Shown: positions 7,801 to 60,610 of the stretch, piece after piece | How positions within the stretch are numbered: the stretch's first letter is position 1 | How the letters are laid out: every line of letters starts with the position of its first letter | Assembly: GCA_934129945.1 (NCBI GenBank) | Contig: CAKOXC010000002.1 | Span: 53,747-117,746, forward strand | Source of the DNA: an uncultured Bacilli bacterium | GTDB lineage: Bacteria > Bacillota_I > Bacilli_A > RF39 > UBA660 | Reading direction: 5' to 3' | Length of the DNA: 64,000 bases | Position numbers and translations under genes: made by a program | Notes under the pieces: generated by a model | Seen by the model: the letters and a program-made list of their open reading frames with translations, nothing else | Database searches by the model: none | What the model was told of the DNA's origin: nothing

Positions 7801-8748
7801 ATGACAATAGTTTTTAAAGTTAGTGAAAATGTACAAAAGAAAATGGAAGAGTTTTATAAAGATTTATATCGAGATAAATTCCCACCATACTCTATTTTTC
7901 AAGCTCAAAGTGCTGATGTAATTATTACTTTATATGAAAGTGGCAAAGTCATGTTTCAAGGAGTTTCAGCTGATATAGAGGCAAATATCTGGAAAGATCA
8001 AGAAAGACACTTAAATAATAGAGATATTGATAAAGAACTTAAAAAGATTGAAGATAAAAAAGAAGAAAAGAAAAAAGAAAATAATTTAAATTTTTATAAT
8101 ATGTCTACTATTGGTAGCGATGAAGTTGGAACTGGAGATTATTTTGGCCCTATTGTTGTAACTGCTACTTATGTAAGCAAGAAAGATGAAATATTTTTAA
8201 GAGATTTGGGTGTCAAAGATTCTAAAGCTCTTACAGATGAAAAAATAATTGAAATTGCTAAAGAATTAATAAAAAAAGTTAATTATAAGACATTTATTCT
8301 AACTAACAAAGATTTTAACGATTATACTAAAAAAGGATATAACATGAATAAGATAAAAGCAATTCTTCATAATAAAGTATTATATTCTATAAAAGAAAAT
8401 CATATGAACGATTATGATAAGATAGTTGTTGACCAATTTGTTTATCCTAAGAAATATTTTGAACATATAAACGAAGCCACTAACAAAGTGACCGATATTT
8501 CCTTCACGCCCCGTGCTGAAAGCAAATGTTTATCAGTTGCTTGCTCTTCTATAATTAGTAGATATATCTTTCTTCATGAAATGGATAAATTATCAAAAGA
8601 ACTTAATATTACTCTACCTAAGGGAGCAAATGATATAGTTGATGATATAGGATTTGAAATTGTTAAAAAATATGGTTTTGATAAGTTATATGAAGTTGCT
8701 AAAATAAATTTTAAAAATACAGAAAAAATTAAAGATAAGATGGAATAA
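7801..8748 (+). CDS. rnhC: ribonuclease HIII
   Basis: 315 aa, N-terminal DUF3378-like region then RNase HII/III catalytic motif DEVGTGDYFGPIVV. Confidence 0.8.
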   Translation: MTIVFKVSENVQKKMEEFYKDLYRDKFPPYSIFQAQSADVIITLYESGKVMFQGVSADIEANIWKDQERHLNNRDIDKELKKIEDKKEEKKKENNLNFYNMSTIGSDEVGTGDYFGPIVVTATYVSKKDEIFLRDLGVKDSKALTDEKIIEIAKELIKKVNYKTFILTNKDFNDYTKKGYNMNKIKAILHNKVLYSIKENHMNDYDKIVVDQFVYPKKYFEHINEATNKVTDISFTPRAESKCLSVACSSIISRYIFLHEMDKLSKELNITLPKGANDIVDDIGFEIVKKYGFDKLYEVAKINFKNTEKIKDKME

Positions 8749-8762
8749 TATTTTCCATCTTT

Positions 8763-9704
8763 TTAATTAAACATCTTTAATAAATAAGTTTTAAATAGTG
8801 TAATTTTATCAAAGTATATTGATTTCATTTGAATATCACATTCATTTAGATTTAAAATGTTATTTTCAAGTTCATCATAAGTATATTTAAAACTATTTTT
8901 TAGCATTTTTTCCACTTGCCAATTCTGCAATTTCAATTCACGAGAAATACTCATTAAATCTCTTTTATCATCATATAAAGTTTTTGTGCAATATAATAAA
9001 CGATATTCACGTGCAAGAAGAATTACCAAAGAAATTGGTTCTACTTTCAGAAGGGATAAATCATCAAGTAATTTAAAAGCTTTTTCTAAATCATTATTTA
9101 TAACCGCTTCTATAAATTTAAAATTATTATCATCAATATTATTAGAAATAATTTTTTTTACATCATTAAATGATATTTTACAAGGATTATCATAATATAA
9201 TTTTAACTTTTCTAGTTCATTATATATTAAATCATAATTATTTAAACAATTATTTATTATATAATTTATACTATCACTTTCAATCGAAAAGCCATCGCTT
9301 TTTAAATTATTTCTAATTTTGTTAGCCAAATCGTTAAAACTTAGTTTTGGAATTTCAATATACGAATATTTTTCTTTAATTAACTTAGTTACTTTTTTTC
9401 TTGTATCACATTTATCATTATAAGTAAAAATTAATATAGTATTTTCATTAGGACTCTCTAAATATTTTAATAATAGTTCTGTCTTTTTTTCTGCAATCTT
9501 ACCACTTCCAAAGATATTTGCATTTTTAACTACTATTACTCTTTTATCATTGAACATAGAAACATATTGAGCTTCAATTAAAATATCTTCTAACTCTACA
9601 TTATTCAAATCAAAAGTTTCAATGTTTGCCTCTTTTTTTAATATTTTTTTTAATTCTTCATCTATTAATTTAATACTATCACTTGTAATCAAATATATAT
9701 TCAT
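8763..9704 (-). CDS. holA: DNA polymerase III delta subunit
   Basis: 313 aa. Position downstream of comE operon mirrors Bacillus comEA-comEC-holA. Delta-subunit-like fold inferred from size and context only. Confidence 0.55.
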   Translation of the reverse strand: MNIYLITSDSIKLIDEELKKILKKEANIETFDLNNVELEDILIEAQYVSMFNDKRVIVVKNANIFGSGKIAEKKTELLLKYLESPNENTILIFTYNDKCDTRKKVTKLIKEKYSYIEIPKLSFNDLANKIRNNLKSDGFSIESDSINYIINNCLNNYDLIYNELEKLKLYYDNPCKISFNDVKKIISNNIDDNNFKFIEAVINNDLEKAFKLLDDLSLLKVEPISLVILLAREYRLLYCTKTLYDDKRDLMSISRELKLQNWQVEKMLKNSFKYTYDELENNILNLNECDIQMKSIYFDKITLFKTYLLKMFN

Positions 9705-9791: not shown

Positions 9792-10681
9792 TTATAATAA
9801 TTTATATTTTCTAGCAATTATTCTATCATCAGAGCAATATTTTATTATATATTCATTATCTTGTTTACATATTATCACTCCAACCGTTTTATTTTCTTCA
9901 ATTGTTTTAATATTTGAATTAATATAATTCATATACATCATAATCTGGCCTATATGCTCTTTTTTTAATTCTGTTACTTTTAATTCAACTACTACATAAC
10001 ACTTATATTTTATATTATAAAGTAATAAATCAATATAATTATATCGGTCATCTAATTTAATTTTATATTCACCACCTATAAAACTAAATGAATTACCAAG
10101 TTCTTTCATAAAAGATTCAATATCTTCCAAAATTAAATTATGTAATGCTTTCTCAGTAACTATTTCAGTATTATTTCTATTTCTAATTAGTATGGGATTT
10201 GGTACTAAATCTTTACTTTAATTTTATCTTTAGAAACTATTTTATTTTTAGTTTCAATTGGCATTCTTTGATATTCCTTGTTTTTAATTTTTTCTCTTAA
10301 TTCTCTTTTAGATAAATTTCTTTCATATGCAATATTAATATAATATATCAATTCATTATCGTCTTTAATTGATAATAATTCAGAATAATGGCTCCAAGAC
10401 AATTTGGTCGCCAGTGGCGACCATTTTTCATTTTTGAATATTCTATAATATTGTCTAATACGTCTCAATGTTCTCTCGTTATACTTTTTCCCAAACTCAA
10501 TAGCCAGTCTATTTGAATAATCATTTAAAATATTATCTCCATACTTACTGCCAGCTTCATCCAGCAATTTACCAACTTCAAAGTATATAATAACTTTATG
10601 CCTTTCTTTTGAATAATCTTTTACTTTTGAATATATTTCATTATCAATTAATTTGTTTTTTATCTCATTGTAATAATTCAT
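9792..10681 (-). pseudogene. YhcG-like (DUF1016) PD-(D/E)XK nuclease split into two ORFs by a frameshift
   Basis: N-terminal DUF1016-like ORF (10205..10681) and C-terminal PDDEXK-like ORF (9792..10130, motif IDLLLYN...VVVELK) lie in different frames. The downstream frame is open back to 10217. A 17-nt local duplication around AAAGAT explains the shift. Confidence 0.6.
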
Positions 10682-10724: not shown

Positions 10725-11543
10725 TTATTTTAATTCATTATTATCTTTTTCTAATTCTTTTAAACTTTTTTCTGGTGTTTTTAATTCTTCTGGCATAGTT
10801 CCTCCCAATCTTTTAATACTATTTCTAACTTCTTTACCTACTTCAAAATGAACAGAATTTGCAGTATATTCATTATCCACATTGTCTCTTTTTAATTTAG
10901 CATCAGTTTGAGCAATTCTAAATATATTATCTGCAAGTTCTTCACTACCCATATTATCTAATATATCTTCTCTATATCTAAGTTTCTTTCTTTTAAAAAT
11001 AACATCGGCTGTTTCACCATTATAAAGTCCTTTATATCCCGCATTATGAAATCTTGCTAAATCTTTTACACCAATTTTCACTGCTGTTTTATTTAAATTA
11101 AAATTTCCTTTTCTTGCTTGATTTCTTCTATATAATCTTTTTTCATTTTCTGTCAATTCATTATAATTTTTTTCACTTAGTTCTTGTTTTCTTGTTTGAA
11201 TGGCAAAATAAGTTTGACCTAAAGCAATTATCTTCTTTTTAGGATTAGCATTTTGAACTATTAAATAGCATATATATCTAGTTAATTTATAATCCTTGAT
11301 AAATTCTTCTTTACCTTTGCCATTTTTTATTGGCTTCCTGACTTCAGGAAGCCAATATAAATTATCATTGCTACTATTTTTGTAAGATGCAACTGCTTTC
11401 TTAATTACGTTATTAAAATTTTCCCACTTGCTATATTCAAGCAATGGCATTAATTCTCTTGCTAACCAATATTCTTCACCATTTTTATCTATATGTTTAA
11501 CATTTTCAAATACTTTTTCTGTGTATTTCTTCAATCCATTCAT
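10725..11543 (-). CDS. DinD-like (DNA-damage-inducible protein D family) protein, copy 1
   Basis: Paralog of 58451..59305 (about 60% identical by eye). Likely start ATG 11543 with SD AAAGGAGG. Family assignment from memory of DinD/Bro-N-like proteins. Confidence 0.5.
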   Translation of the reverse strand: MNGLKKYTEKVFENVKHIDKNGEEYWLARELMPLLEYSKWENFNNVIKKAVASYKNSSNDNLYWLPEVRKPIKNGKGKEEFIKDYKLTRYICYLIVQNANPKKKIIALGQTYFAIQTRKQELSEKNYNELTENEKRLYRRNQARKGNFNLNKTAVKIGVKDLARFHNAGYKGLYNGETADVIFKRKKLRYREDILDNMGSEELADNIFRIAQTDAKLKRDNVDNEYTANSVHFEVGKEVRNSIKRLGGTMPEELKTPEKSLKELEKDNNELK

Positions 11544-11559
11544 TTTATCATCCTCCTTT

Positions 11560-13596
11560 CTATGGACTACAAGTCTCAATTTTTAATTTATTATTTTTAA
11601 TTTTAAACATAATACTACCATTTTTATCTGTTCTATATATTTTTGAATCCTGTAATGTATCTAAAACTTCTTTATTCGGATGGCCATACCCATTATTCTT
11701 TCCAACACTGATTATGGAATATTTAGGATTTATATAATCAATAAATTCTTTTCCACTGCTTGTCTTAGAACCATGGTGTCCAATTTTTAATACATCGATA
11801 TCAGATAAATCATAATTATTTATTATATCCTTTTCTCTTGCTATTCCAGCATCTCCCATAAATAAAAATTTATAATTATTTAACTTTGTATAAATAACAT
11901 TGCTATTATTATTTTCATTATCATATTCTTTTGTATTTAAAAAATATAATTTACTATTATTAATATCTAAATTCTGAATACAAGAAGAATATTTAATATT
12001 ATTTTTATCTAATAAATTCATCAAATTTATTTCTAAATCATTATAAGATCCACAATTAAATACCACTTGTTCTACTTTAAAGTCACTAACTAAATTGACT
12101 GCTTCTCCCATATGATCGTAGTCTCCATGAGTAATTATTAATTTTGTAATTTTAGTAATACCAAAACTTTTTAAAAATGTAATTAATTGCTCTGAATCTT
12201 TATATTCTTTTGTTTTTTCTTGCCAGGATTCTTTTTGATAGGTAGTTTTACCACCTGTATCAATCATTACTACGTCTTTGTGTTTTGGACTTATAATTAC
12301 TTCACAATCACCTTGACCTGCATCTAAATAATAAATATAATAGTTGCTATTAAATAAATAACTAAATTTAGTTATTACTACTAAGACTGGTAAAAATAGC
12401 AATAATTTTTTGTTCTTTGTTTTTATAAATAAAATCAGGAAAACATAATATATTAAAATTATAATTAAATTCATTTTACCAGTAGTTATTATAAAAGCTA
12501 ATTTTTCTAATAAAAAATTACTGTATTCTAGTATTACTATTAAGATATGTAAAATACTATCTAAAAATGGAAAAATAAAAGAAAGTAATAAAAATGGGTA
12601 AAGAATATATGAAACAAATGGTACTATTAAAATATTAATAAATATTGAGATTAAATTAAATTCAAAATTATTGTAAAGAGTTATTGGTAAAGACAATAAA
12701 AAAGCAAATATTGAAAGACTTATAATACATTTTGGTTTAATTAAAAATAAACCAAGTGTTATTATAAATGAATATTGGAATCCAACATCTAATATTAAAA
12801 ATGGATTTATTAAAATTAAAATAAAGGCTGTATAAAAAAGTAATTTTGAATTATTAAAATCTTTGAATAAATTTATATTTTTTAAAGTATAAAATATAGT
12901 AACTCTTAAAACAGAAGACGTAAACATTACTAAAAAACTATAAATATATAAAAATATTACGATGAATTTATTATTGAACTTTAATTTATTAAATATAAGA
13001 ATAAGCATGCTTATATGCATGCCTGAAATAGCAAATAAATGGGTTATTCCATTGGTTTTATATAAATTGTATACATTACTCTCTAAAAGGCTTTTATCAC
13101 CTAGGATAAAGGTATAAAAATATTTAGAATCCTTTCTATTATCAATCATTTTTATGATAAAATTCTTTAATTTATAAAAAATATTATTCTTTTTAATTAT
13201 TTTAACTGTCTTTGTATTCATGATAAGATTTATATTTTTAGATTTTAAATATTTTTTATAATTAAAGTTATTAGTAATAGTATTATTAACTGGTTCATTA
13301 ACTGAACCAGTAGTTTTTATAGTATATCCTAACTCAAGATTATTCTCTAAATACTTTTTTTCACTTTCTGTTTTTATATAGTAATTTGCTATTATTTTTT
13401 GTTTATTCTTTAACTGCATTGAAAGTTTATCACCATCTATTTTATAAGCTACTAAAACACCATTAAATTTATCTATATTTAAATTAGAATTTTTTATATT
13501 AAAATTTAGTATAATATAAACAGATAACATTATAAATAAAATAATTAATGTAATATTAGATTGTAATATTTGATTTAATTTTTTCAAACAATGCAT
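11560..13596 (-). CDS. comEC: DNA internalization competence protein ComEC/Rec2
   Basis: 678 aa. N-terminal polytopic membrane region plus C-terminal metallo-beta-lactamase motif (ITHGDYDHMGEA). Overlaps comEA. Confidence 0.85.
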   Translation of the reverse strand: MHCLKKLNQILQSNITLIILFIMLSVYIILNFNIKNSNLNIDKFNGVLVAYKIDGDKLSMQLKNKQKIIANYYIKTESEKKYLENNLELGYTIKTTGSVNEPVNNTITNNFNYKKYLKSKNINLIMNTKTVKIIKKNNIFYKLKNFIIKMIDNRKDSKYFYTFILGDKSLLESNVYNLYKTNGITHLFAISGMHISMLILIFNKLKFNNKFIVIFLYIYSFLVMFTSSVLRVTIFYTLKNINLFKDFNNSKLLFYTAFILILINPFLILDVGFQYSFIITLGLFLIKPKCIISLSIFAFLLSLPITLYNNFEFNLISIFINILIVPFVSYILYPFLLLSFIFPFLDSILHILIVILEYSNFLLEKLAFIITTGKMNLIIILIYYVFLILFIKTKNKKLLLFLPVLVVITKFSYLFNSNYYIYYLDAGQGDCEVIISPKHKDVVMIDTGGKTTYQKESWQEKTKEYKDSEQLITFLKSFGITKITKLIITHGDYDHMGEAVNLVSDFKVEQVVFNCGSYNDLEINLMNLLDKNNIKYSSCIQNLDINNSKLYFLNTKEYDNENNNSNVIYTKLNNYKFLFMGDAGIAREKDIINNYDLSDIDVLKIGHHGSKTSSGKEFIDYINPKYSIISVGKNNGYGHPNKEVLDTLQDSKIYRTDKNGSIMFKIKNNKLKIETCSP

Positions 13597-14317
13597 CTCC
13601 TATACCTGAAACATTTTTTATATCATCAATTGTTTTAAAAGACCCATTAGTATTGCGATATTCAATAATAGCAGTAGCTTTCGATTCACCAATTGAATTT
13701 AATGTCATCAGTTCTTCTTTTGTTGCTGAATTAATTGAAATTAATTTATTTGTATTTTGGCTACCAGAACTTACTTGTTCATTGGATTTTACAGAATTAG
13801 AGTTATCTAAGCTTTTACTTGTAGTTGTATTACTGTTAATAATAGATGCATTATTTTCATTGCATTCATTTATGATAACACTATCACTTGTACATTCACT
13901 ATTACTTGATAAACTATTTCCTTTAGTAATCTGAAGTAACTCATTTTTTGTAAATACTTTAATAACCATTTGATCCTCTAATTTTTTACTTAAATTAAGA
14001 TTACTCGTATCAGCATTCTTTTTTAATCCTCCAGCTAAATTTATTAAATCAATCACATTACTTGTATTTTCCAATTCATAAACACCTGGATTTTTAATAG
14101 CTCCTTTTACATCAACTTTTATTTTATCATTTTGTTTCTTTTCTTCTTCTACATTTTCTTTTAAAGTTTGAATATTTTGATTAGTAGTTTCATTTTTTAT
14201 TGTTCTAACATTAAATGAACGATAAATGAGCACAATTATCCCTGTTAAAAGAAATATAAATAACGATAAACAAATAATATTAAAATAATAGTCAATTATT
14301 TCTTTTATTTTATTCAT
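13556..14317 (-). CDS. comEA: competence protein ComEA (DNA receptor)
   Basis: N-terminal TM, SH3-like/KNPGVY motif, C-terminal tandem helix-hairpin-helix (ISINSATKEELMTLNSIGESKATAII...). Confidence 0.8.
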   Translation of the reverse strand: MNKIKEIIDYYFNIICLSLFIFLLTGIIVLIYRSFNVRTIKNETTNQNIQTLKENVEEEKKQNDKIKVDVKGAIKNPGVYELENTSNVIDLINLAGGLKKNADTSNLNLSKKLEDQMVIKVFTKNELLQITKGNSLSSNSECTSDSVIINECNENNASIINSNTTTSKSLDNSNSVKSNEQVSSGSQNTNKLISINSATKEELMTLNSIGESKATAIIEYRNTNGSFKTIDDIKNVSGIGDALFEKIKSNITI

Positions 14318-14321
14318 TTTT

Positions 14322-14396
14322 TCACCCCCTTCTACTATCTTATTACAAAAAAATGTCTCATTTCCTTTTTTTTCTTATTAATTTCTTAAAAAAATC
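14322..14396 (-). promoter_or_regulatory. conserved promoter/leader cassette, copy 1 (upstream of comEA)
   Basis: Minus-strand reading AAGAAATTAATAAGAAAAAAAAGGAAATGAGACATTTTTTTGTAATAAGATAGTAGAAGGGGG then ATG. Near-identical to copies at 15270..15342 and 34978..35050. Confidence 0.6.
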
Positions 14397-14418
14397 ATTA
14401 AAAAAAAGCAAATATTAA

Positions 14419-15261
14419 CTATTTTGCTATTTTTTTGATTTCAGTAATATTTAGTCCTGTTAATCTAGAAATACTTTCTAAAGGTATTTTTTCATCAAGC
14501 ATTTTCTTTGCTATTTCTATTTGCTTTTGATTAGATCCTTTTTCAATACCTTCTTCAATACCCTCTAATCTTTCACTATTTAAAATCATTTCTTGATCTT
14601 CTTCTGGATCAAATAATATCTCGGCAAATTCTTCTGCACTTAATTTCTTCTTAAACTTTTCCATTATCTTACCCCTTATCTTACTTCCTTGTACAAGTTC
14701 TTCCATTTTTTTAATACTTGTACAATTTAGCATCGCAAGATTCTTTTCTTTCTCGCTAATATTATTATAATCCATTTCTTTATATTTGCCTAGATATATT
14801 TCATGTATTGTTATTTTTTCATCTCTTACTTTATTTTTCTCATCATACATTCTTTTGGTTGTATTTATTATATCTTCATCTATTTCACATAAATAGTTAT
14901 TTATATTTATTTGATATAACTTAAATTCTTTTTTATAGTTCTTATCATATTTAAATATTTGTAATATTACTTTTGCTACATAACATAAATTTCTATTATC
15001 TAGATAATCTCTTTTAAAATTATTAGCTTCAATATTTAAAAATGTATTTGATTCTTTATCTCTTAAACATAAATCTACTCTATTTCTTGTATCTTTTATA
15101 TTTATAACCATCAATTCTTCACTCGTTAAATCAAAGCTATTTAAATCTAACTCGAAGTAATCTTTAAATATTTCATTTAATAATTCTCTAAATTCACTAC
15201 ATTCTTTAAACATACTTTTAAATATACAATCAGTAAGTAATGAGACTTTTTTCATTTGCAT
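14419..15261 (-). CDS. Rpn-family recombination-promoting nuclease / putative transposase (PD-(D/E)XK, YhgA-like), copy 1
   Basis: N-terminal D-x-I-F-K-x-x-F motif (DCIFKSMF), C-terminal EGIEEGIEKG...IAKKML repeat region typical of Rpn/YhgA-like proteins. Confidence 0.55.
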   Translation of the reverse strand: MQMKKVSLLTDCIFKSMFKECSEFRELLNEIFKDYFELDLNSFDLTSEELMVINIKDTRNRVDLCLRDKESNTFLNIEANNFKRDYLDNRNLCYVAKVILQIFKYDKNYKKEFKLYQININNYLCEIDEDIINTTKRMYDEKNKVRDEKITIHEIYLGKYKEMDYNNISEKEKNLAMLNCTSIKKMEELVQGSKIRGKIMEKFKKKLSAEEFAEILFDPEEDQEMILNSERLEGIEEGIEKGSNQKQIEIAKKMLDEKIPLESISRLTGLNITEIKKIAK

Positions 15262-15269
15262 TATTATTG

Positions 15270-15342
15270 CACCTCCTACTATCTTATTACAAAAAAATGT
15301 CTCATTTCCTTTTTTTTCTTATTAATTTCTTAAAAAAATAGC
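15270..15342 (-). promoter_or_regulatory. conserved promoter/leader cassette, copy 2 (upstream of Rpn-family gene)
   Basis: Same ~65-nt core as copy 1, followed by SD GGAGGTG and ATG at 15261. Confidence 0.6.
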
Positions 15343-15356
15343 AATTTCTTGCTAAT
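15331..15356 (-). terminator. intrinsic terminator downstream of SEDS gene
   Basis: TAGCAA-gaaa-TTGCTA hairpin followed by T7 on the minus strand. Confidence 0.55.
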
Positions 15357-22795: not shown

Positions 22796-24694
22796 TTACT
22801 TTGTAAGAACTAGGCGAAGTCCAATGCCACCATCGGCACCACCAGTGTGATGAATGAAGGAGAACTGACCCGCAAGTACACCATTGCCGTAACGGCCGCC
22901 TCGATGGAACCAAGAGTACGAAGAATTGGCAAAGTAAGAATTGTCAGCATACCAACCATTGTGTGGGCGATTATTACTATCTGCATCTTGATAATAATAA
23001 AATGGTCCCATCTCTCCTGTTGCATCTCCTAAGATTCTCTTACTATATGTTGTCCAATCACTATTTGCATCATATTCATCATAATATTTAGAATTGTATG
23101 ATTTTAATGATGAACTATCAAATCCTGAATCCTTATACGTTTCACTTCTAAGTGATGCCATATACTCCAAAGCTCCACCGCTCATATCATATATTCCTGT
23201 TATATTTCCTGTTGTACTTGCTTTATATCCTGTACTTGTATTATATGGTAAAGTTACACTTGCATCTGTTCCATAGGTTCCGGGGACTTTGGTTTGATCA
23301 GCACTATCTGTTGCTGCATATCCTGTTATGTAATTTGAATTATTATTTATTCTAACTTCAGTATTTATTCCATATTTTGAATGAGATAGATATGCTACTG
23401 CTCCCCATTCTGTATTTTTCATCATATGTGAGTCATTATCTCTTTTATAATTATATGCTGTTTCAAACATTGTTTTTACATTTATATTTCTTAATGATGT
23501 TTGATTTGGTTTTACTGTTATATTTGCTGTACTTCCGGTTGTTTCAAATTTTGCTACCCATAATCCATTTGTATTCATTGAAATAAATGCAGGTGAAGTC
23601 ATATAATCTCCAACCTTACAATTACCACTTGCTCCACTTGTCATTGGTGTTGTACATTCTCCATTATTTGAATCATTTGTATTTGTTGTGCCAAATTTTA
23701 TTTGAATTTCTTTTGCATTACTTGTCGTTGGCTTACTAGATGTATACCCATCAGTTTCACCTAAATTAAATATTTGATATGAATATTTTGGTATCCATAC
23801 AAAGTATGATTCAATATTATCTTCTGGTATTGTATCCCCATTATTATATATTTTAGAACTATCTGCTAAAATAACTGCATTGGCCCATTTCTTATCTTCA
23901 TATTTATACCACTCTATATTAGTATCTGCCTTTGTTACTGTTCCATCATCAGCTATTGCTACTGGTATTAAATTATCACTTAATACTGGATCTGTTCCAT
24001 TAAGTAATGCTTCTTTGTATTCAGCTTTAACGCTAGAATCAGTACTACTTGTTACTATTACTTTACCAGTAAATGATTTACCCATAGTTGATAAATCTTC
24101 AACACTTTCATCCATCCAAACATATAGTTTATATGTCTTTGACTGTCCTTTTGATACTACAGAACTATTATCACTATTCATAGTAGCTTTTGTTAGACTT
24201 CCACTAGTTAATATATATGAATTTAATATATTGTAAGTATTATTATTTTCATCAGTATAAGTATAATTATTATATTCATCATATTTTTTTGTACTTCCTA
24301 TTATCTTAGGACCTACTGTGTTGCCTTTTTCGTCAACCAGTTTGTAATCAAGATAATTATCTAAATCACTACTTCCAGTAGTGTTTAATGTTACATTATA
24401 ATACATATCAATTGAACAATTATTAGTTATTGTAAAAGTATATGGGGTATTTTTCATTGCATCAGTTTCGCTCATCGGATAAGTATTTGTTAAATTAATT
24501 GGATTTTCATCAGTTAATTCAAAAGAAAAACATCCACTTTTTATTTTATTAGTTGATTTTTGAGCATAATTTTTTTGCCAATATGCATAAGATACACCTG
24601 TAAATATTACCATAATAAATATAAATGCTAAAACTCCGATTAATGTTATTGGTAATATATTATCTTTATTAAATTTTAAATTTATTTTTTTCAT
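22796..24694 (-). CDS. Ser/Thr/Asn-rich membrane-anchored surface protein with C-terminal FGE-sulfatase (SUMF1/DUF323)-like domain
   Basis: N-terminal TM (ILPITLIGVLAFIFIMVIF). C-terminal motifs GIYDMSGGALEYMAS, HRGGRYGNGVLAGQF, GIGLRLVL resemble the FGE fold (DMxGNVWEW, RGGSW, GFRC). Start is one of three consecutive ATGs at 24694-24700 after SD AGAAGG. The 3' ~250 nt are strikingly GC-rich. Confidence 0.5.
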   Translation of the reverse strand: MKKINLKFNKDNILPITLIGVLAFIFIMVIFTGVSYAYWQKNYAQKSTNKIKSGCFSFELTDENPINLTNTYPMSETDAMKNTPYTFTITNNCSIDMYYNVTLNTTGSSDLDNYLDYKLVDEKGNTVGPKIIGSTKKYDEYNNYTYTDENNNTYNILNSYILTSGSLTKATMNSDNSSVVSKGQSKTYKLYVWMDESVEDLSTMGKSFTGKVIVTSSTDSSVKAEYKEALLNGTDPVLSDNLIPVAIADDGTVTKADTNIEWYKYEDKKWANAVILADSSKIYNNGDTIPEDNIESYFVWIPKYSYQIFNLGETDGYTSSKPTTSNAKEIQIKFGTTNTNDSNNGECTTPMTSGASGNCKVGDYMTSPAFISMNTNGLWVAKFETTGSTANITVKPNQTSLRNINVKTMFETAYNYKRDNDSHMMKNTEWGAVAYLSHSKYGINTEVRINNNSNYITGYAATDSADQTKVPGTYGTDASVTLPYNTSTGYKASTTGNITGIYDMSGGALEYMASLRSETYKDSGFDSSSLKSYNSKYYDEYDANSDWTTYSKRILGDATGEMGPFYYYQDADSNNRPHNGWYADNSYFANSSYSWFHRGGRYGNGVLAGQFSFIHHTGGADGGIGLRLVLTK

Positions 24695-24799
24695 CATCAT
24701 ACCTTCTACTCTATAAATTATTATACTAAATAAGGAATAGTAATTCAACTGAAAAACTATTTTAAATTACTAGAAATTGTTATATTTTCACCATTAAAT

Positions 24800-31313: not shown

Positions 31314-32198
31314 TTAATTTAATTCATTTTGTTTTTTTATCTCATTTATCTTTTCAATTGATAAATTTGTTATTTTAGAAATTGCGTTAATAGCAATTTC
31401 TTCATTTAACATATTTTTTATCGTTTTGATTTTTTCTTGTTCTTGTCCTAATTTAAGTCCTTTTTCTTCACCAAGCTTAATGCCTTTTTCATATCCTGTA
31501 TCTTCTGCTTCTCTTATTAATGAGTTTTGCATCTTTCTTTGATCTTCTTCATGACTCATATATTCTTGAAAAAATGGATCGTTATTTAATATTGTTACAC
31601 TCTCTACATATTTTTCTGATATCTTATCACTTTTTGGCATTTTCTTTAACTCCCCTTCATTTAAATCTAACATTACTAAAAGTTCATTTTCTTTTATCTT
31701 TTTTTCATCCTTACTATACCAAATTTTTTTATAATATTCCATATTTATTTCTATTATTAGTAAATTTTTTACATACACATTTCCATTTTTATCAATTATT
31801 CTAAATTCTCTTTTGCTTTCTTCATAATCGAGTCCCCATGTCAAATTTATTTGAATTATATCAATATCTTGATTACATGTATCACCAACTAAAGCATTAG
31901 TTGAATATACATTACAAATATATGCGGTATTTCTTATATACACATATTCATTAATACTTGCATTTATCTCTATTTCTATCTTTTTATTTGTAGCAAGTAT
32001 TAAGGCGTCTACTCTTTTTGATTTTATTATATTATTACCTACTATTAACTCTGTTGGAAGTATTTTTTTTATTTCTATTTTCACTTTTAATATATCTTCT
32101 AGTAAGGATTCTAGTAAATCTTCATTCTTGGGATTTAAAAATACTTCTTTAAATGTTCTATCATAACGACAACTGTAAAATTTTTGCACCAAAATCAC
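31314..32198 (-). CDS. Rpn-family recombination-promoting nuclease / putative transposase, copy 2 (GTG start)
   Basis: DRTFKEVF N-terminal motif, C-terminal EKGIKLGEEKGLKLGQEQ...IKNMLNE repeats. Begins at GTG with tightly spaced SD. Confidence 0.5.
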   Translation of the reverse strand: MILVQKFYSCRYDRTFKEVFLNPKNEDLLESLLEDILKVKIEIKKILPTELIVGNNIIKSKRVDALILATNKKIEIEINASINEYVYIRNTAYICNVYSTNALVGDTCNQDIDIIQINLTWGLDYEESKREFRIIDKNGNVYVKNLLIIEINMEYYKKIWYSKDEKKIKENELLVMLDLNEGELKKMPKSDKISEKYVESVTILNNDPFFQEYMSHEEDQRKMQNSLIREAEDTGYEKGIKLGEEKGLKLGQEQEKIKTIKNMLNEEIAINAISKITNLSIEKINEIKKQNELN

Positions 32199-32210: not shown

Positions 32211-32243
32211 ATATAAAAAGAGAACATTAAAATTCTCTTTTTA
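32211..32243 (-). terminator. intrinsic terminator closing the bacteriocin operon
   Basis: AAAGAGAA-8nt loop-TTCTCTTT then T-rich run on the minus strand, immediately after peptide B stop. Confidence 0.5.
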
Positions 32244-32396
32244 ACAAAAATTTCTGTTAATCGCTCTTCTTATAGTAGATCCAACAGTTCTTCCAAATTC
32301 TAAAATTGTGTTTACAGCTCTTGCAGCAGCATTTATGTAAGTAGCAGTCCAACTACCACCAGTAATATTAATTAACTCATTTCTTTCTATTTTCAT
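32241..32396 (-). CDS. double-glycine leader bacteriocin-like peptide B (51 aa): MKIERNELINITGG|SWTATYINAAARAVNTILEFGRTVGSTIRRAINRNFC
   Basis: Manually translated. Leader fits LSxxELxxIxGG consensus. ATG overlaps stop of peptide A (TAATG). Not in the ORF track. Confidence 0.6.
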   Translation of the reverse strand: MKIERNELINITGGSWTATYINAAARAVNTILEFGRTVGSTIRRAINRNFC

Positions 32397-32530
32397 TATT
32401 TATTACACTTTAATGGTCTCATAAAGCCATCAAATACTCCTACTATAAAAATTCCAAATCCTGCTATTGCTAACCATAACCCTTTGCCACCACCTGTGAC
32501 ACTGTTTAAATAATCATTACTAAGTTTCAT
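32396..32530 (-). CDS. double-glycine leader bacteriocin-like peptide A (44 aa): MKLSNDYLNSVTGG|GKGLWLAIAGFGIFIVGVFDGFMRPLKCNK
   Basis: Manually translated. Hydrophobic mature part with GxxxG motifs. ATG overlaps stop of orf139 (TAATG). Confidence 0.6.
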   Translation of the reverse strand: MKLSNDYLNSVTGGGKGLWLAIAGFGIFIVGVFDGFMRPLKCNK

Positions 32531-32949
32531 TAACCTAAAACTCCCTTCATTATTTTTTTAATTATCAAATCTTTATTGTAATAAAAAGTTATTTCTACTA
32601 TTTCATTATTTTCTTTCTTCGTTTTATTAGTAAATTGAATCTCTTGAACATTAATATTTCCGTTGCTATAAATATCACTATATTTAAAAGAGTCTAAGAC
32701 AAATAAAGAATTATTAATTTTATATTGATAACTTTGTGATATTTTTTTAGCATTTAAAACATTTTCTGTTAATACAATGTAATTATCTTTTATGATTCCA
32801 TTAGTTATGTATTTATTAGGGATTTTAAAAAAAAGGAAAAAACTAATAATTGACATAACTATGATTAAATAAAAAATAAATATAATTTTCAATTTTTTAT
32901 GTTTTCCATAAACAAAATTCAAATCTTCTAAATTAAGCATTTGCTCCAC
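32530..32949 (-). CDS. single-TM accessory/immunity-like protein of bacteriocin operon (139 aa)
   Basis: One N-terminal TM. Overlaps ABC gene stop and peptide A start; function inferred from position only. Confidence 0.4.
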   Translation of the reverse strand: MEQMLNLEDLNFVYGKHKKLKIIFIFYLIIVMSIISFFLFFKIPNKYITNGIIKDNYIVLTENVLNAKKISQSYQYKINNSLFVLDSFKYSDIYSNGNINVQEIQFTNKTKKENNEIVEITFYYNKDLIIKKIMKGVLG

Positions 32950-34975
32950 CTATTTCTAATACTTCATCAAAATATTCTTCATAATCCTTATGTGTAACAT
33001 AAATTATTGTTTTATTTTTAAGCTTTAAATTAAGTTCTTTTATTATATCTATTTCTAAATTTCTATTAACCTCGCTTAAGGCTTCATCAAGTATCAAAAT
33101 TGATGAATTTTTATATAGAGCTCTTGCAAGGATAATTCTTTGTTTTTCTCCGCCAGATAAATTGTTAAAATTTTTATTAATAAAAGTTTCATAGCGTAAC
33201 GGCTTTTTGCAAACTAATTCTTCTAAATGACATAATTTACATATTTCAGTAAATTTTTTTATATTAAATTCATTATTTAATATAATGTTATTTTTAATAG
33301 TATCGTCAAATAAAAATTCATTTTGTGATAAATATGTAATATTTGATCTAATAGTAGCTAATGGGTAATCAAATATATCTACATTATCTATTGTAATAGT
33401 ACCTTTTTGTAATTCATAGGTTCTATTTAGTAATTTGCAAAACGTCGATTTACCAATTCCACTTTTTCCTTTTATCATAACATGAGAATTTTTTTTGATT
33501 GTGAGGTTGACATCATTTATTATATTGGTATAGTTGTTATAGGAAAATCCTACATTTTTGGCGATTATATCGCCATTTAAAAATGGTTCTTTTAATTCTA
33601 AGTTTTCTTCTTTATTATCCATAAACTCAATATTTTTTTCTAAAGAAGCTTTTAAATAATTACATTTTGGGATTAATTCCATAAAAGATTTAATCGGATC
33701 TATTAAATAAACAAAGACAGATTCAAATGTAATAAAATTTACCAAAGTTATTTTGTCATGAAATAGTAGATAAAAACCAAAAGTTATCAATGTATAATGC
33801 ATTAAATCAAGTACACCATTTTTAAAACTATTTATTAAATTCATAGAACTATTAATTTTAAAAATAGATTTTAAATAATTTATAATGTTTTTTTGCATTT
33901 TAATAATAAAATGACTTTCTAAATTATTATTTTTAATTGATTCAAAAGCATTACAAGATTCACTAATACTTTCATTAAACTTTTCATTACATTCAATGTT
34001 TCTTCTAATTATTCTATAAATAAATTTACTTGTTATTAATGCTATTAAAAGGTAGGAAGTGACAAAAAAACATAATATCATTAATAATTTTGAATTTATA
34101 AAATATAGAACAATAAAAGAACATATAGCTAAAAATAAATTCATAATAGTGCTTATAACTACTTCAGATATTACTTCATGTAGATTATTAAGTTCTAAAA
34201 CTCGAGTTATAATTTCACCTGATGATCTATTTTTAACAATTTTAGAAGGAAGATTAAAAAATTTTTCAAAAAATGCTTCGTTTAAATTATAATTAATATC
34301 TTTTATCAAATAATTCTTATAATAATTACTAATAAATTCAAATATTAATTTACTAAAATATAAAAACAAAAATAAGAATGCTACTGGTTTTAAATAATTT
34401 TGATTATCTAGATTATTGAAACATAATTTAAAATACATACTATTTAAGATGGTTAGAAATGTTATTATAAAACCAGTAATAATAATATTTATAAAAAGTT
34501 TTTTATTATTTTTTATAATATTAGAAATAAACTTGTAAATATTCGTCTCTTCTCTTTTTATAATATTATCTTCTTTAGGATATGCAACTATCACTACTCC
34601 CGTAAAAATTTCATAAAAATCTTGATATTTTATTTTTACTATTCCTTTATAAGGATCCATGAGAGTAATAAAATTTTTACTTAATTTGTAACAAACTACA
34701 TAATGGTTTAAACCATTTTTTAAGGACAAGTGAACAATTGCTGGTAGATTTAATTCTTTATCAATCTTATCTACTTTTAATCCATAGGAATCAAAGCCAT
34801 ATTTTTTTATTGCTTCAACCAAATTATAAGCTGTAGTTCCTGAAATATTGGTATAACAATCATTATGAATTATTTCAAGTGGCACATAACCATTATAATA
34901 TTTTAGTAATGACAAAATACAACATGGTCCGCAGTCTTTGATATCTCTTTGTTTTACTACTTCTATTTTTTGCAT
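32933..34975 (-). CDS. bacteriocin-type ABC exporter with N-terminal C39 peptidase domain (LagD/ComA family)
   Basis: N-terminal QRDIKDCGPCCILSLLKYY (C39 Cys), 6-TM region, C-terminal Walker A GKSGIGKST and LSGGEKQRIILARAL. True start probably ATG 34975 (SD AGAAGGGAGA); track start 35038 reads through the conserved promoter cassette. Confidence 0.8.
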   Translation of the reverse strand: MQKIEVVKQRDIKDCGPCCILSLLKYYNGYVPLEIIHNDCYTNISGTTAYNLVEAIKKYGFDSYGLKVDKIDKELNLPAIVHLSLKNGLNHYVVCYKLSKNFITLMDPYKGIVKIKYQDFYEIFTGVVIVAYPKEDNIIKREETNIYKFISNIIKNNKKLFINIIITGFIITFLTILNSMYFKLCFNNLDNQNYLKPVAFLFLFLYFSKLIFEFISNYYKNYLIKDINYNLNEAFFEKFFNLPSKIVKNRSSGEIITRVLELNNLHEVISEVVISTIMNLFLAICSFIVLYFINSKLLMILCFFVTSYLLIALITSKFIYRIIRRNIECNEKFNESISESCNAFESIKNNNLESHFIIKMQKNIINYLKSIFKINSSMNLINSFKNGVLDLMHYTLITFGFYLLFHDKITLVNFITFESVFVYLIDPIKSFMELIPKCNYLKASLEKNIEFMDNKEENLELKEPFLNGDIIAKNVGFSYNNYTNIINDVNLTIKKNSHVMIKGKSGIGKSTFCKLLNRTYELQKGTITIDNVDIFDYPLATIRSNITYLSQNEFLFDDTIKNNIILNNEFNIKKFTEICKLCHLEELVCKKPLRYETFINKNFNNLSGGEKQRIILARALYKNSSILILDEALSEVNRNLEIDIIKELNLKLKNKTIIYVTHKDYEEYFDEVLEIGGANA

Positions 34976-34977
34976 AT

Positions 34978-35050
34978 TTTTTCTCCCTTCTACTATCTTA
35001 TTACAAAAAAATATCTCATTTCCTTTTTTTTCTTGCAAATTTCTTTAAAA
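34978..35050 (-). promoter_or_regulatory. conserved promoter/leader cassette, copy 3 (upstream of C39-ABC/bacteriocin operon)
   Basis: AAGAAATTTGCAAGAAAAAAAAGGAAATGAGATATTTTTTTGTAATAAGATAGTAGAAGGGAGA then ATG; matches copies 1 and 2. Confidence 0.6.
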
Positions 35051-35053
35051 AAT

Positions 35054-35080
35054 TTAAAAAAATCGTCATTTTCGACGATT
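35054..35080 (-). terminator. intrinsic terminator of upstream membrane-protein gene
   Basis: AATCGTC-gaaaat-GACGATT then T7 on the minus strand. Confidence 0.55.
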
Positions 35081-35797
35081 TTTCTTCTTTTTTGTATTAT
35101 TTTTGTCTTTTTTCATCAAAGAAATTTCTTTTTGTTTGTCTTTACTTAAATTAGGAAAAGCTTTTAATAATCTACCTGGGAATATTTTAAATTTTGCCAT
35201 TCTTTCTTTTAATGTTTTTTCAAATAATAAAGGTATTTTACTTAATTTTTCACTTTTAAGTTCTTCTACTATTATTAATCTGTTACGAAGATTAAATGCA
35301 ACAACACAAGAATATATAATATCAGAAAGTAACAATATAGTTATTAAAATTAATGAAATATTAAAAATGTTGTGTGGTATAAGCATAATAAATTTATCAA
35401 CTAATGGTTCAACTAAATAAATAATTGCTAAAGAACCAAAACCAAACATAATCGAATTTAGTAAACATATTCTTCCATTGATATTATACTTATAATTATT
35501 ATAATCCCACCACATATTATGAAATATTTTTTCAAGTAAAAAACTAGTAAAGTATTCTAATGCAGAACATATAATCATTCCAAACACAAAAACAACTAAT
35601 GGATCACTTTTATATCTTGATAATGCAAATAATATAAATATTGCTCCAAATCCATAGATTGGAATTAATGGTCCACATAAAAAACCTCTAGGACTAAATT
35701 TTTTATCAAGAATAGCACAAAATAATGTTTCACAGATAAACCCGATAAAACTATATAAAAGAAATGTTGTATATAAATAAATAAATACTTTCATCAT
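35066..35797 (-). CDS. polytopic membrane protein (possibly DUF1113/CmpB-like putative ABC-transporter type IV family)
   Basis: 243 aa, about 6 TMs, lysine-rich C-terminal tail. Family assignment tentative. Confidence 0.35.
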   Translation of the reverse strand: MMKVFIYLYTTFLLYSFIGFICETLFCAILDKKFSPRGFLCGPLIPIYGFGAIFILFALSRYKSDPLVVFVFGMIICSALEYFTSFLLEKIFHNMWWDYNNYKYNINGRICLLNSIMFGFGSLAIIYLVEPLVDKFIMLIPHNIFNISLILITILLLSDIIYSCVVAFNLRNRLIIVEELKSEKLSKIPLLFEKTLKERMAKFKIFPGRLLKAFPNLSKDKQKEISLMKKDKNNTKKKKNRRK

Positions 35798-42735: not shown

Positions 42736-43248
42736 TTATTTTGCTAAAACTAATCGAAGACCAATGCTGCTGCCAGCACCACCAGTGATATAAATGAAGC
42801 CGAACTGACCTGCAAGCACACCATTGTCGGAAGTGCCGCCTCGACCGAACCAAGGGTAAGAAGAATCGGCAAAGTTAGAATTGTCATCGTACCAATTATT
42901 ATGTATTCTTGTTTTACTATCGGTATCCTGATAGTAATACAAAGGTCCCATTTCTCCTGTTGCATCTCCTAAAATTCTCTTACTATAAGTAGTTTCAGCA
43001 CTTGAACTATTATATTCGTCATAGTATTTTGAATTGTATGCTTTTAATGATGAATTATCAAATTCAGAACTTCCATATGTTTTACTTCGAAGAGATGCCA
43101 TATATTCCCAAGTTCCACCACTCATATCATAAATTCCTGTGATATTTCCTGTTGTACTTGCTTTATATCCTGTGGTTGTATTATATGGTAAAGTTACACT
43201 TGCATCAGATCCAGCTTCTCCAGGGTATTTACTTATTTTTAGAATCAA
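42736..43248 (-). pseudogene. truncated paralog (C-terminal 160 aa) of the FGE-domain surface protein, fused into the 3' end of dtd
   Basis: About 80% nt identity to 22796-23290. Homology begins at PG..G.DASVTLPYN. The ORF's first 8 codons overlap the dtd 3' end in another frame. GC-rich like the parental 3' end. Confidence 0.55.
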
Positions 43249-58450: not shown

Positions 58451-59305
58451 CTATTTTATTCCTTCAAGTTTCTTTTGCGCTTTTATTTCTAATTTTTTCT
58501 TTTCTTTTTCAAGCTCTTTTAAACTTTTTTCTGGTGTTGGCATTTCTTCAGGCATTATTCCACCAATATCTGCGATTGCTTTTCTAACTTTTTTCCCAAC
58601 CTCATAATGTACATCTTTTGCTTCTTTTTCTCCTTGTACATTATCTTTTAAAAGTTTTTGTTTTGTTTGATTTATTCTAAATAAATTAGCAACTAATTCA
58701 TCTTCATTCATATTATCCAAAATATCTTCTCTATAACGTAATTTTTTTCTTTTAAAAATATCGTCAGCAGTTTCTCCATTATATAATCCTTTATATCCTG
58801 CATTATGAAATTCAGCCATATTTTTAACGCCAGCAGATGAAGCGACCTTTTGTAATGTATAATTACCTTGTCTTGTTAACTTTCTTTGATAAAATCTTTT
58901 TTCATCATCTGATAATGAATCATATTCTTGCTCTGTTATTTCTTGTTTTCTTGTTTGTATAGCAAAATATGTTTGTCCTAAAGCAACAACTTCTTTATTT
59001 GGATCAGCATTTTGTACTATTAAATAACATATATATCTTGAAAGTTTATAATCTTTAATAATTTCTTCTTTGCCTTTACCAGTTTTTATTGGCTTGTTGA
59101 CCTCAACAACCCAATCTTCTTCGCTTGAAACGCTGTTATTTGCTGCTAAAACTGCTTTATCTATTACTTTTTGAAAATTTCTCCAGTCTTTATATTCCAA
59201 TACTTTTTGTAATTCACGCGCATACCAATATTCATTTTCATATTCATCTATATGTTTAATATTCTCAAAAATATTGTTAGTATATCTATCTCCAAGTTTC
59301 TTCAT
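58451..59305 (-). CDS. DinD-like protein, copy 2
   Basis: 284 aa paralog of 10725..11543. Confidence 0.5.
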   Translation of the reverse strand: MKKLGDRYTNNIFENIKHIDEYENEYWYARELQKVLEYKDWRNFQKVIDKAVLAANNSVSSEEDWVVEVNKPIKTGKGKEEIIKDYKLSRYICYLIVQNADPNKEVVALGQTYFAIQTRKQEITEQEYDSLSDDEKRFYQRKLTRQGNYTLQKVASSAGVKNMAEFHNAGYKGLYNGETADDIFKRKKLRYREDILDNMNEDELVANLFRINQTKQKLLKDNVQGEKEAKDVHYEVGKKVRKAIADIGGIMPEEMPTPEKSLKELEKEKKKLEIKAQKKLEGIK

Positions 59306-60429: not shown

Positions 60430-60610
60430 TATTTAAATATGATTCATTATTTTCAATTTCCAACCTGTTATATTTACTAATTTCATGTAATACCTTTTCT
60501 ACATTATATAATCATTTATATCTTGCATTATGAAATTCAGCCATATTTTTAATATCAACAACTAAACCAACTTTTTGAAGTGTATAATTACCCTGCTTGT
60601 TCTAATTTAC
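60430..60610 (-). pseudogene. remnant of a third DinD-like gene (internally deleted)
   Basis: 60511-60605 is about 80% identical to 58790-58880 of copy 2 (AEFHNAGYKG region). 60440-60510 weakly matches the N-terminal region. Confidence 0.45.

Follow-up and report, generated by a model that had tools for sequence, protein, structure and literature searches.

A repeated block ahead of DNA-uptake, nuclease and bacteriocin genes

The window, by which we mean the whole 64-kb stretch of DNA that was analysed (G+C content 24.6%), carries on its minus strand the genes comEA and comEC, a gene for an Rpn-family nuclease and a bacteriocin locus (Table 1). ComEA consists of SLBB and HHH_3 domains and ComEC matches TIGR00361 above the cutoff (Pfam and NCBIfam); in relatives the order ftsW-comEA-comEC-...-holA is kept. 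The Rpn-family protein matches Pfam PDDEXK_2 above the cutoff (2.5e-9) and, over its full length, TIGR01784 just under it (49.8 bits against a cutoff of 52.1; 3.9e-13). A second Rpn-family paralog, 25% identical to the first, lies at the 3' end of the bacteriocin locus.

Alignment and profile searching revealed that a 67-nt block occurs three times in the window, always on the minus strand: directly upstream of comEA (copy A), of the first Rpn-family gene (copy B) and of the C39-ABC exporter gene (copy C). A and B differ at one position, A and C at five and B and C at six, which corresponds to 91-99% identity over the 67 nt, and nhmmer recovered the copies with E values of 1e-17 to 1e-18. The 34-nt core GGAAATGAGACATTTTTTTGTAATAAGATAGTAG has three minus-strand matches, two of them exact (14332-14365 and 15276-15309) and one with a single mismatch (34990-35023), compared to none in 100 dinucleotide-preserving shuffles. 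An earlier note on this DNA had described a near-identical cassette present three times, and this repeat is real: chance predicts none. The consensus that it gave holds, down to the AATA/TGCA, C/T and A/G variants, and the copies do run into the Shine-Dalgarno (SD) sequence and ATG of comEA-comEC, the Rpn-family gene and the C39-ABC operon. The block ends 10 nt before the ATG in all three cases. No degenerate copies were found in the window, either with nhmmer (next match E>5 with --max) or in a scan allowing 10 mismatches. The 10-mer in the leader of the PilB-like ATPase gene, which had been proposed as a partial match, is attributable to chance (0.94 expected), and its true position is 2379-2388, not 2369-2378.

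Each copy has the same layout. An A-tract and the nonamer AAAGGAAAT occupy the -35 position and are followed by a spacer of 11-12 nt and by a TGTAAT-type box at the -10 position; a fourth element, the TAGTAGARGG start/SD region, lies about 10 nt after the TGTAAT-type box. The earlier note had also placed an intrinsic terminator before each copy, which is clear for C, holds with a short hairpin for B and is doubtful for A, where the hairpin is weak.

Table 1. Position of the module copies, their boxes and the neighbouring features in the window
Feature	Position	Strand	Remark
comEA-comEC	11560..14317	-	ancestral cargo of the promoter
comEA	13556-14317	-	
comEC	11560-13596	-	
Module copy A	14328..14394	-	directly 5' of comEA; ortholog of the comEA promoter conserved in related lineages
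Copy A, AAAGGAAAT	14360-14368	-	
Copy A, 11-nt spacer	14349-14359	-	
Copy A, TTGTAAT	14342-14348	-	
Copy A, leader/SD TAGTAGAAGG	14328-14337	-	
Copy A, ATG	14315-14317	-	
Hairpin AGCAAA..TTTGCT + T8	14407..14428	-	weak; overlaps the Rpn stop codon, 5' of copy A; -3.5 kcal/mol, z -0.2
Rpn-family PD-(D/E)XK nuclease gene	14419..15261	-	280 aa; between copies B and A
Module copy B	15272..15338	-	directly 5' of the Rpn-family gene; 1 mismatch to A
Copy B, AAAGGAAAT	15304-15312	-	
Copy B, TTGTAAT	15286-15292	-	
Copy B, ATG	15259-15261	-	
Hairpin AGCAAGAAATTGCT + T7	15340..15353	-	ftsW terminator, 5' end of the copied unit; -5.8 kcal/mol, z -2.3
Second Rpn-family paralog	31314..32198	-	3' end of the bacteriocin locus; not headed by a module
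Bacteriocin locus	32241..34975	-	behind copy C; Pfam/NCBIfam
Two double-glycine-leader peptides	32396-32530, 32241-32396	-	bacteriocin locus
Membrane protein	32530-32949	-	139 aa; bacteriocin locus
C39-peptidase ABC exporter	32933-34975	-	Peptidase_C39, ABC_membrane and ABC_tran
Module copy C	34986..35052	-	directly 5' of the C39-ABC gene; 5 mismatches to A
Copy C, AAAGGAAAT	35018-35026	-	
Copy C, TTGTAAT	35000-35006	-	
Copy C, ATG	34973-34975	-	
Intrinsic terminator of the CmpB-family gene	35056..35085	-	5' of copy C; T-run; -12.6 kcal/mol, z -4.0

Other repeats and disrupted genes were observed in the window. The DUF1016/YhcG nuclease gene located 3' of comEC (9792-10681) is split into ORFs of 158 and 112 aa; other assemblies of the species (L008-L010) have it intact, with 296-297 aa. 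Two Bro-N domain genes (10725-11579, directly 3' of comEC, and 58451-59305) share 72-79% DNA identity over about 600 nt, and a third Bro-N fragment lies at 60496-60595. A direct repeat of 300 nt (78% identity) connects 22796-23095 with 42736-43035, and the 170-aa ORF after dtd is a duplicate of the C-terminal portion of the 650-aa ORF located at 22796-24748.

The module outside the window

We scanned one genome per species, from 185,579 species, with the pattern AAGGAAAT-N13-GTAATAAGATAG. Just four loci were obtained, all in a single metagenome-assembled genome (uncultured Erysipelotrichaceae bacterium RUG14121), which is about 95% identical to the window. Three of the four are the orthologs of A, a B-like copy and C; the fourth, copy D, lies upstream of a gene for an MvaI/BcnI-family restriction endonuclease (246 aa, Pfam E 1e-37) that is divergent from rimP-nusA. 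A metagenome scan, which used a looser two-box pattern, gave 29 loci. Eight are true copies, in five contexts: comEA, Rpn after ftsW, an Rpn variant after ligA, C39-ABC and MvaI/BcnI. The remaining 21 have unrelated spacers, in coding or unrelated DNA, and were taken as chance matches. Moreover, exact-protein look-ups found the same arrangement in many independent human-gut assemblies, and therefore the repeat is not an assembly artefact. Plasmid and phage collections yielded short chance matches only and no block.

Note that the MvaI/BcnI-family gene (L014 6922-7662 / L024 10751-11491), which sits between the divergent rimP-nusA and a tRNA cluster, has no adjacent methyltransferase gene.

The earlier note had named two kinds of surroundings that would speak against a shared regulatory cassette, namely unrelated housekeeping genes and the repeats of a mobile element. 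The first was not encountered, since the copies outside the window precede Rpn paralogs and the MvaI/BcnI gene. As for the second, the copies are nonetheless linked to a repeated, probably mobile, Rpn gene module, to which we return below.

Conservation of the boxes at comEA

ComEC homologs were gathered, their contigs fetched and the regions upstream of comEA compared. The lineages are denoted here by locus, with their ComEC identity: L050 (91%), L053 (73%), L054 (65%), L055 (58%), L057 (57%) and L058 (51%). In all six, comEA is preceded by the A-tract and AAAGGAAAT, 11-12 non-conserved nucleotides and (T/A)GTA(A/T)(T/A), usually TTGTAAT; most lineages also have the TAGTAGARGG box about 10 nt past the -10 element. 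AAAGGAAAT is the only 9-mer common to the six upstream regions, and it is invariant while the sequence of the spacer varies between lineages. Overall, about 16 of the 67 block positions are conserved between species.

The same comparison of shared 9-mers provided an internal control at these loci. The ftsW upstream regions share TTTTGACATTAAAAA and those of cvpA TATAATT, which are ordinary sigma-A boxes, while the holA upstream regions have nothing in common. The shared-word approach therefore detects promoter boxes, and those of comEA differ from them in kind. In L055 and L057 the start codon lies about 40 nt farther off and the mutual spacing of the three boxes is unchanged, indicating that the boxes belong to a promoter and not to the ribosome-binding region. 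One exception was seen: L056 (ComEC 52%) has a plain sigma-A promoter at comEA, TTGAAA-17-TAAAAT. In L054, a second copy of the motif is present upstream of a DUF1016/YhcG nuclease gene. The comEA-comEC promoter is the original copy of the module, and it is conserved in a clade of low-GC, spore-forming Erysipelotrichaceae, uncultured bacteria of the gut.

The comEA leaders that are longer by about 40 nt (L055 9225-9300 and L057 4990-5045) have a peculiarity of their own: the conserved TAGAAGGGG / TAGAGGA box takes part in a 5' hairpin (-14.1 kcal/mol in L055, -6.5 in L057), and a second SD follows.

Promoter or transcribed leader

In principle, the block could belong to the 5' UTR and regulate the downstream gene through translation or attenuation, by way of an RNA structure or a leader peptide. 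In favour of such a reading, all the copies of the species contain an 8-codon ORF, ATGAGACATTTTTTTGTAATAAGATAG, which encodes MRHFFVIR* and ends in tandem TAG codons just before the SD. However, the ATG is missing in L053, L054, L055 and L058, which rules out this leader peptide. A structured leader or riboswitch was also rejected, because the three copies fold no better than their shuffled versions (z -0.1 to -1.0) and no Rfam family matched at its gathering score or at E<=0.1, the best match being a eukaryotic snoRNA with E 0.34. Moreover, just 13-31 nt separate the upstream stop codon or terminator from the module, a gap too short to hold a further promoter, and the copy at the MvaI/BcnI gene has the divergent rimP as its upstream neighbour, which excludes read-through. 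Given these short gaps and the divergent rimP, the module must itself initiate transcription. We consider a role as a 5'-UTR element extremely improbable.

A separate observation concerns the spacer. The sequence AATGAGACATTTTT (15293-15306) is complementary at 13 of 14 positions to codons 3-7 of the Rpn ORF (15239-15252), as is also the case in L043 and L011. In a transcript reading through from ftsW, and thus including the spacer, a hairpin of -16.7 kcal/mol (z -2.6) encloses the SD and the AUG, whereas a transcript that starts after TTGTAAT has no such hairpin (-9.2 kcal/mol, z -0.7). Judging from this pairing, the hairpin might silence translation of the toxic nuclease from read-through transcripts.

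A sigma-H-type -35 box with a distinct -10 box

The sigma-H consensus of B. subtilis and Listeria is RMAGGRWWW-N11-12-RRMGAAW (PMC4754846). In all 13 promoter versions, from seven lineages, AAAGGAAAT fits its -35 part at nine of nine positions. The distance between this nonamer and the -10 heptamer is 11 nt in the window species, L053, L055 and L057, as in sigma-H promoters, and 12 nt in L054 and L058 if these are aligned on GTA. The sigma-H-like -35 box proposed in the earlier note is hence well founded, being also the element that stays unchanged at comEA in six lineages. The -10 candidates of that note fared differently: the conserved element is (T/A)GTA(A/T)(T/A), typically TGTAAT, which is neither GAAT/CGAATA nor a good extended -10. 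The heptamers TTGTAAT, GAGTAAT, CTTGTAT and TCTGTAA match RRMGAAW at three to five of seven positions, with a T instead of the G of GAAT; for TTGTAAT the match is 3/7, and the near-invariant G of GAAT is absent. None of the copies contains the CGAATA of the streptococcal cin-box, TACGAATA.

The absence of a sigma-A -35 from the cassette was likewise borne out. A consensus scan for TTGACA/TATAAT pairs at 16-18 nt found none in copies A and C, and in copy B only a chance-level pair (9/12) whose -10 lies within the B-specific leader. In contrast, the neighbouring promoters (pilin, PilB-like ATPase, L19, CmpB and ftsW) are canonical and near-perfect, with TTGACA-17-(TG)nTATAAT. A scan of the window and about 20 loci for classical sigma-H patterns (AGGAWWW..GAAT) and for relaxed forms of the module's motif returned only the known copies in promoter positions, and inspection of the module by eye gave no match to ComK boxes, cre, Rex or similar sites.

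The window, searched with lenient E-values and including its unannotated ORFs, contains no sigma factor gene in its 64 kb. The organism carries the sporulation genes SpoIIP, SpoIIIAH, GerM and SpoVIF, and because of these we presume that it has a sigH gene, as spore-forming Firmicutes do.

These data can be accommodated in two ways. In the first, sigma-A would recognise a weak -10 (TAATAA/TAAGAT, directly preceded by TG), and the site of a dedicated class II activator, the A-tract with AAAGGAAAT, would stand in for the missing -35 box; the activator would then be a competence or stationary-phase regulator rather than an alternative sigma factor. Activator-dependent promoters that lack a -35 box are common. 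A TG does precede an A/T-rich hexamer in nearly all versions (TGTAATAA, TGTATATA, TGTAATAT), the -10 box is a poor fit to sigma-H, and a protein-binding site would give the same conservation pattern at AAAGGAAAT. On the other hand, the hexamers are poor, that of the window (TAATAA) lacking the final T, the TG is shifted by one base relative to TGnTATAAT, and all other promoters that we examined in this genome have a near-perfect TATAAT. In addition, no ComK-type AAAA-N5-TTTT boxes or palindrome were seen on inspection, and the nonamer is identical to sigma-H -35 boxes and located exactly at their position. An activator-dependent sigma-A promoter, the main rival, is in our judgement possible but unlikely. 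The other is a clade-specific comEA promoter with a sigma-H-type -35 and a distinct -10, as the architecture of the module suggests. Its reader would most likely be a sigma-H-family factor with an altered -10 preference, an assignment in which our confidence is somewhat better than even.

Origin of the copies and the link to Rpn genes

In L050, L053 and L058, ftsW is directly followed by the motif and comEA, with no Rpn gene in between. The closest sister, L050, has the same ftsW hairpin (AGCAAGAAATTGCT plus T-run) and the same module, then comEA. Compared to this arrangement, the Rpn gene of the window is an insertion between ftsW and comEA that is bracketed by two hairpin/module units. Rpn paralogs elsewhere are also preceded by the hairpin and the module, the homology starting exactly at the hairpin; their contexts are after ligA (L043), after an unnamed 286-aa ORF without a match in the window (L011) and in the SpoVIF region (L004/L060). 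Since the ftsW terminator, which belongs to the donor locus, has travelled with the copied unit, the comEA promoter must be the source from which the other copies derive, and this establishes the direction of copying. Note that C and D have another 5' variant in common, AAATTTGC; relatives such as L055 have a similar AAATTT, not the full AAATTTGC.

The module, together with the ftsW hairpin, was thus duplicated ahead of several Rpn paralogs, the MvaI/BcnI endonuclease gene and the bacteriocin exporter, and it now heads at least four other transcription units in the species. The near-identity of the copies stems from recent copying of one promoter, with only the boxes being constrained over longer times. 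Thus, of the earlier claim that such tight conservation implies a shared regulatory device rather than drift, the device stands, but the 67-nt identity reflects recent copying, not constraint on each base.

Could the block instead be a transposable element, or part of one? An IS or MITE was rejected: neither terminal inverted repeats nor target duplications were seen at the block, all copies face a start codon and there is no plasmid or phage match. A related idea is that the block is mainly the end, or the recombination substrate, of a mobile or recombining Rpn module, its other positions being a by-product with no shared regulation. In support of this, direct copies of the block flank the Rpn gene, at least four upstream contexts are known for the hairpin-block-Rpn unit, Rpn genes are points at which contigs break or switch surroundings, and contigs of 974-1216 nt carry an Rpn gene only. 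However, the boxes are kept at comEA where no Rpn gene is adjacent (L050, L053, L055, L057 and L058), copies C and D have no Rpn gene directly downstream, and every copy has an SD and is directed at a start codon. The lack of terminal inverted repeats, target duplications and plasmid or phage matches argues against it as well, and we hold this explanation to be very unlikely.

A different proposal is that the hairpin-promoter-Rpn unit is a mobile gene module, in which an Rpn gene travels with a copy of the competence (comEA) promoter and the promoter copies of about 100 nt serve as recombination substrates, wiring newly acquired nuclease and bacteriocin genes into DNA uptake. We regard it as a long shot. 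If true, it would make the Rpn family, a poorly understood 'putative transposase' family, demonstrably mobile and tie it physiologically to natural transformation.

The surroundings of the Rpn genes vary between assemblies. From about 12780 in L015/L016/L017, what follows the bacteriocin locus is either the second Rpn gene with a GNAT gene (as in the window), an Rpn gene and then rpsP-RNaseJ-ftsAZ, or a 205-aa gene and then T2SSF/prepilin peptidase. Upstream of the first Rpn gene lies ftsW or the SpoVIF region (L004/L060, upstream of 8964), and in L004 about 600 nt with no called gene (8365-8960) separate SpoVIF from the hairpin of the Rpn unit. L061 and L062 belong to the same group of loci, and contigs of 974-1216 nt contain the first Rpn gene alone. 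These switches are either true rearrangements or repeat-induced joins.

Genes brought under the module

Apart from comEA-comEC, the genes behind the module are all accessory: Rpn nucleases, the MvaI/BcnI endonuclease, the bacteriocin exporter with its peptides and, in L054, the DUF1016 nuclease. The pilus genes that we examined, in the window species and a relative, lack the motif and have sigma-A promoters of the TTGACA-17-TGnTATAAT type instead; they comprise the PilB/ComGA-like ATPase gene (2394), the pilin genes (16885 and L004) and T2SSF/prepilin peptidase (L017, L057). The expectation that the motif would be a competence box, found at comG-type genes, was consequently disappointed where it could be examined. 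The proposed parallel with competence-fratricide fared better in part: the DNA channel, the nucleases and the bacteriocin exporter share what appears to be one promoter, but the pilus genes are left out. By analogy, a fratricide-like co-regulation is possible.

Discussion

The promoter of comEA has been propagated onto accessory genes, and we consider it probable that a sigma-H-like factor reads it. In this model, the module would be served by RNA polymerase with an alternative sigma factor that belongs to the sigma-H/ComX group and has moved in its -10 preference from CGAAT to TGTAAT. DNA uptake, nucleases and bacteriocin export would be switched on together, while the upstream hairpins would insulate each module-headed unit from read-through. 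The duplication of the module with the ftsW terminator hairpin at its 5' end amounts to promoter propagation. Note that both the identity of the sigma factor and the co-expression of the module-headed genes are what we infer from this architecture.

We know of no account of how competence is regulated in Erysipelotrichia, a common gut and rumen class for which few genetic tools exist. The clade-specific motif offers a handle for finding the regulon and the sigma factor in complete genomes and metatranscriptomes, and the module itself could be put to use for inducible expression. As an example of promoter propagation the case is unusually clear: the donor locus, the unit that was copied (terminator, promoter and SD) and its recipients can all be named. 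Finally, Rpn-family nucleases, about whose natural role there is debate (PMC5350276, PMC10400941), come to share a promoter with the DNA-uptake channel.

How does the module compare with known systems? The streptococcal ComX late-competence regulon, which is coupled to bacteriocins and fratricide, shares with it the idea of DNA uptake being co-regulated with killing and nuclease functions, and the factor that reads the module would likewise be of the sigma-H family. ComX (sigma-X) promoters, however, have the cin-box TACGAATA and no strong -35 box, whereas the module lacks the former and has a strong -35. Streptococcal bacteriocin exporters, moreover, are driven by ComE/BlpR and not by ComX.

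A close resemblance in sequence can be drawn to Listeria monocytogenes, in which the experimentally mapped sigma-H promoters of comEA, comGA, coiA and lytG contain AAAGGAATT, AAAGGATTT or GAAGGAAAT (PMC4754846). The com genes of S. aureus and L. sakei are under sigma-H control as well (PMC3486894, PMC3364868). Like the Listeria com promoters (AAAGGAATT, GAAGGAAAT), the module is located at comEA, carries the RMAGGRWWW nonamer as AAAGGAAAT and has a spacing of 11-12 nt, and in both the boxes are kept while the spacer drifts. Unlike them, its -10 is TTGTAAT and not GGCGAAT, and the module is known here from sequence alone. It is not found at pilus or pseudopilus genes, as would be the case in the sigma-H/ComX regulons of Listeria, Staphylococcus and streptococci, and it differs from the sigma-H com regulons of Bacilli in its cargo, Rpn and MvaI/BcnI nucleases and a bacteriocin exporter, and in its class, Erysipelotrichia.

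The second known kind are the putative mobile promoters, defined as sequences of at least 50 nt and at least 80% identity with non-homologous coding sequences both downstream and upstream (PMC3488235). The block fits this definition, with 67 nt, 91-99% identity, ComEA, Rpn and C39-ABC downstream and Rpn, FtsW and CmpB upstream. As in the mobile promoters of Matus-Garcia, Nijveen and van Passel (2012, PMC3488235), conservation stops a few bases before the start codon. Unlike those, the source (comEA) and the direction of spread can be identified here, the copied unit includes the terminator of the donor, and the spread is tied to a repeated Rpn gene. The element thus joins two known kinds, sigma-H-type com promoters and mobile promoters; what is new is its -10 box and its traceable history.
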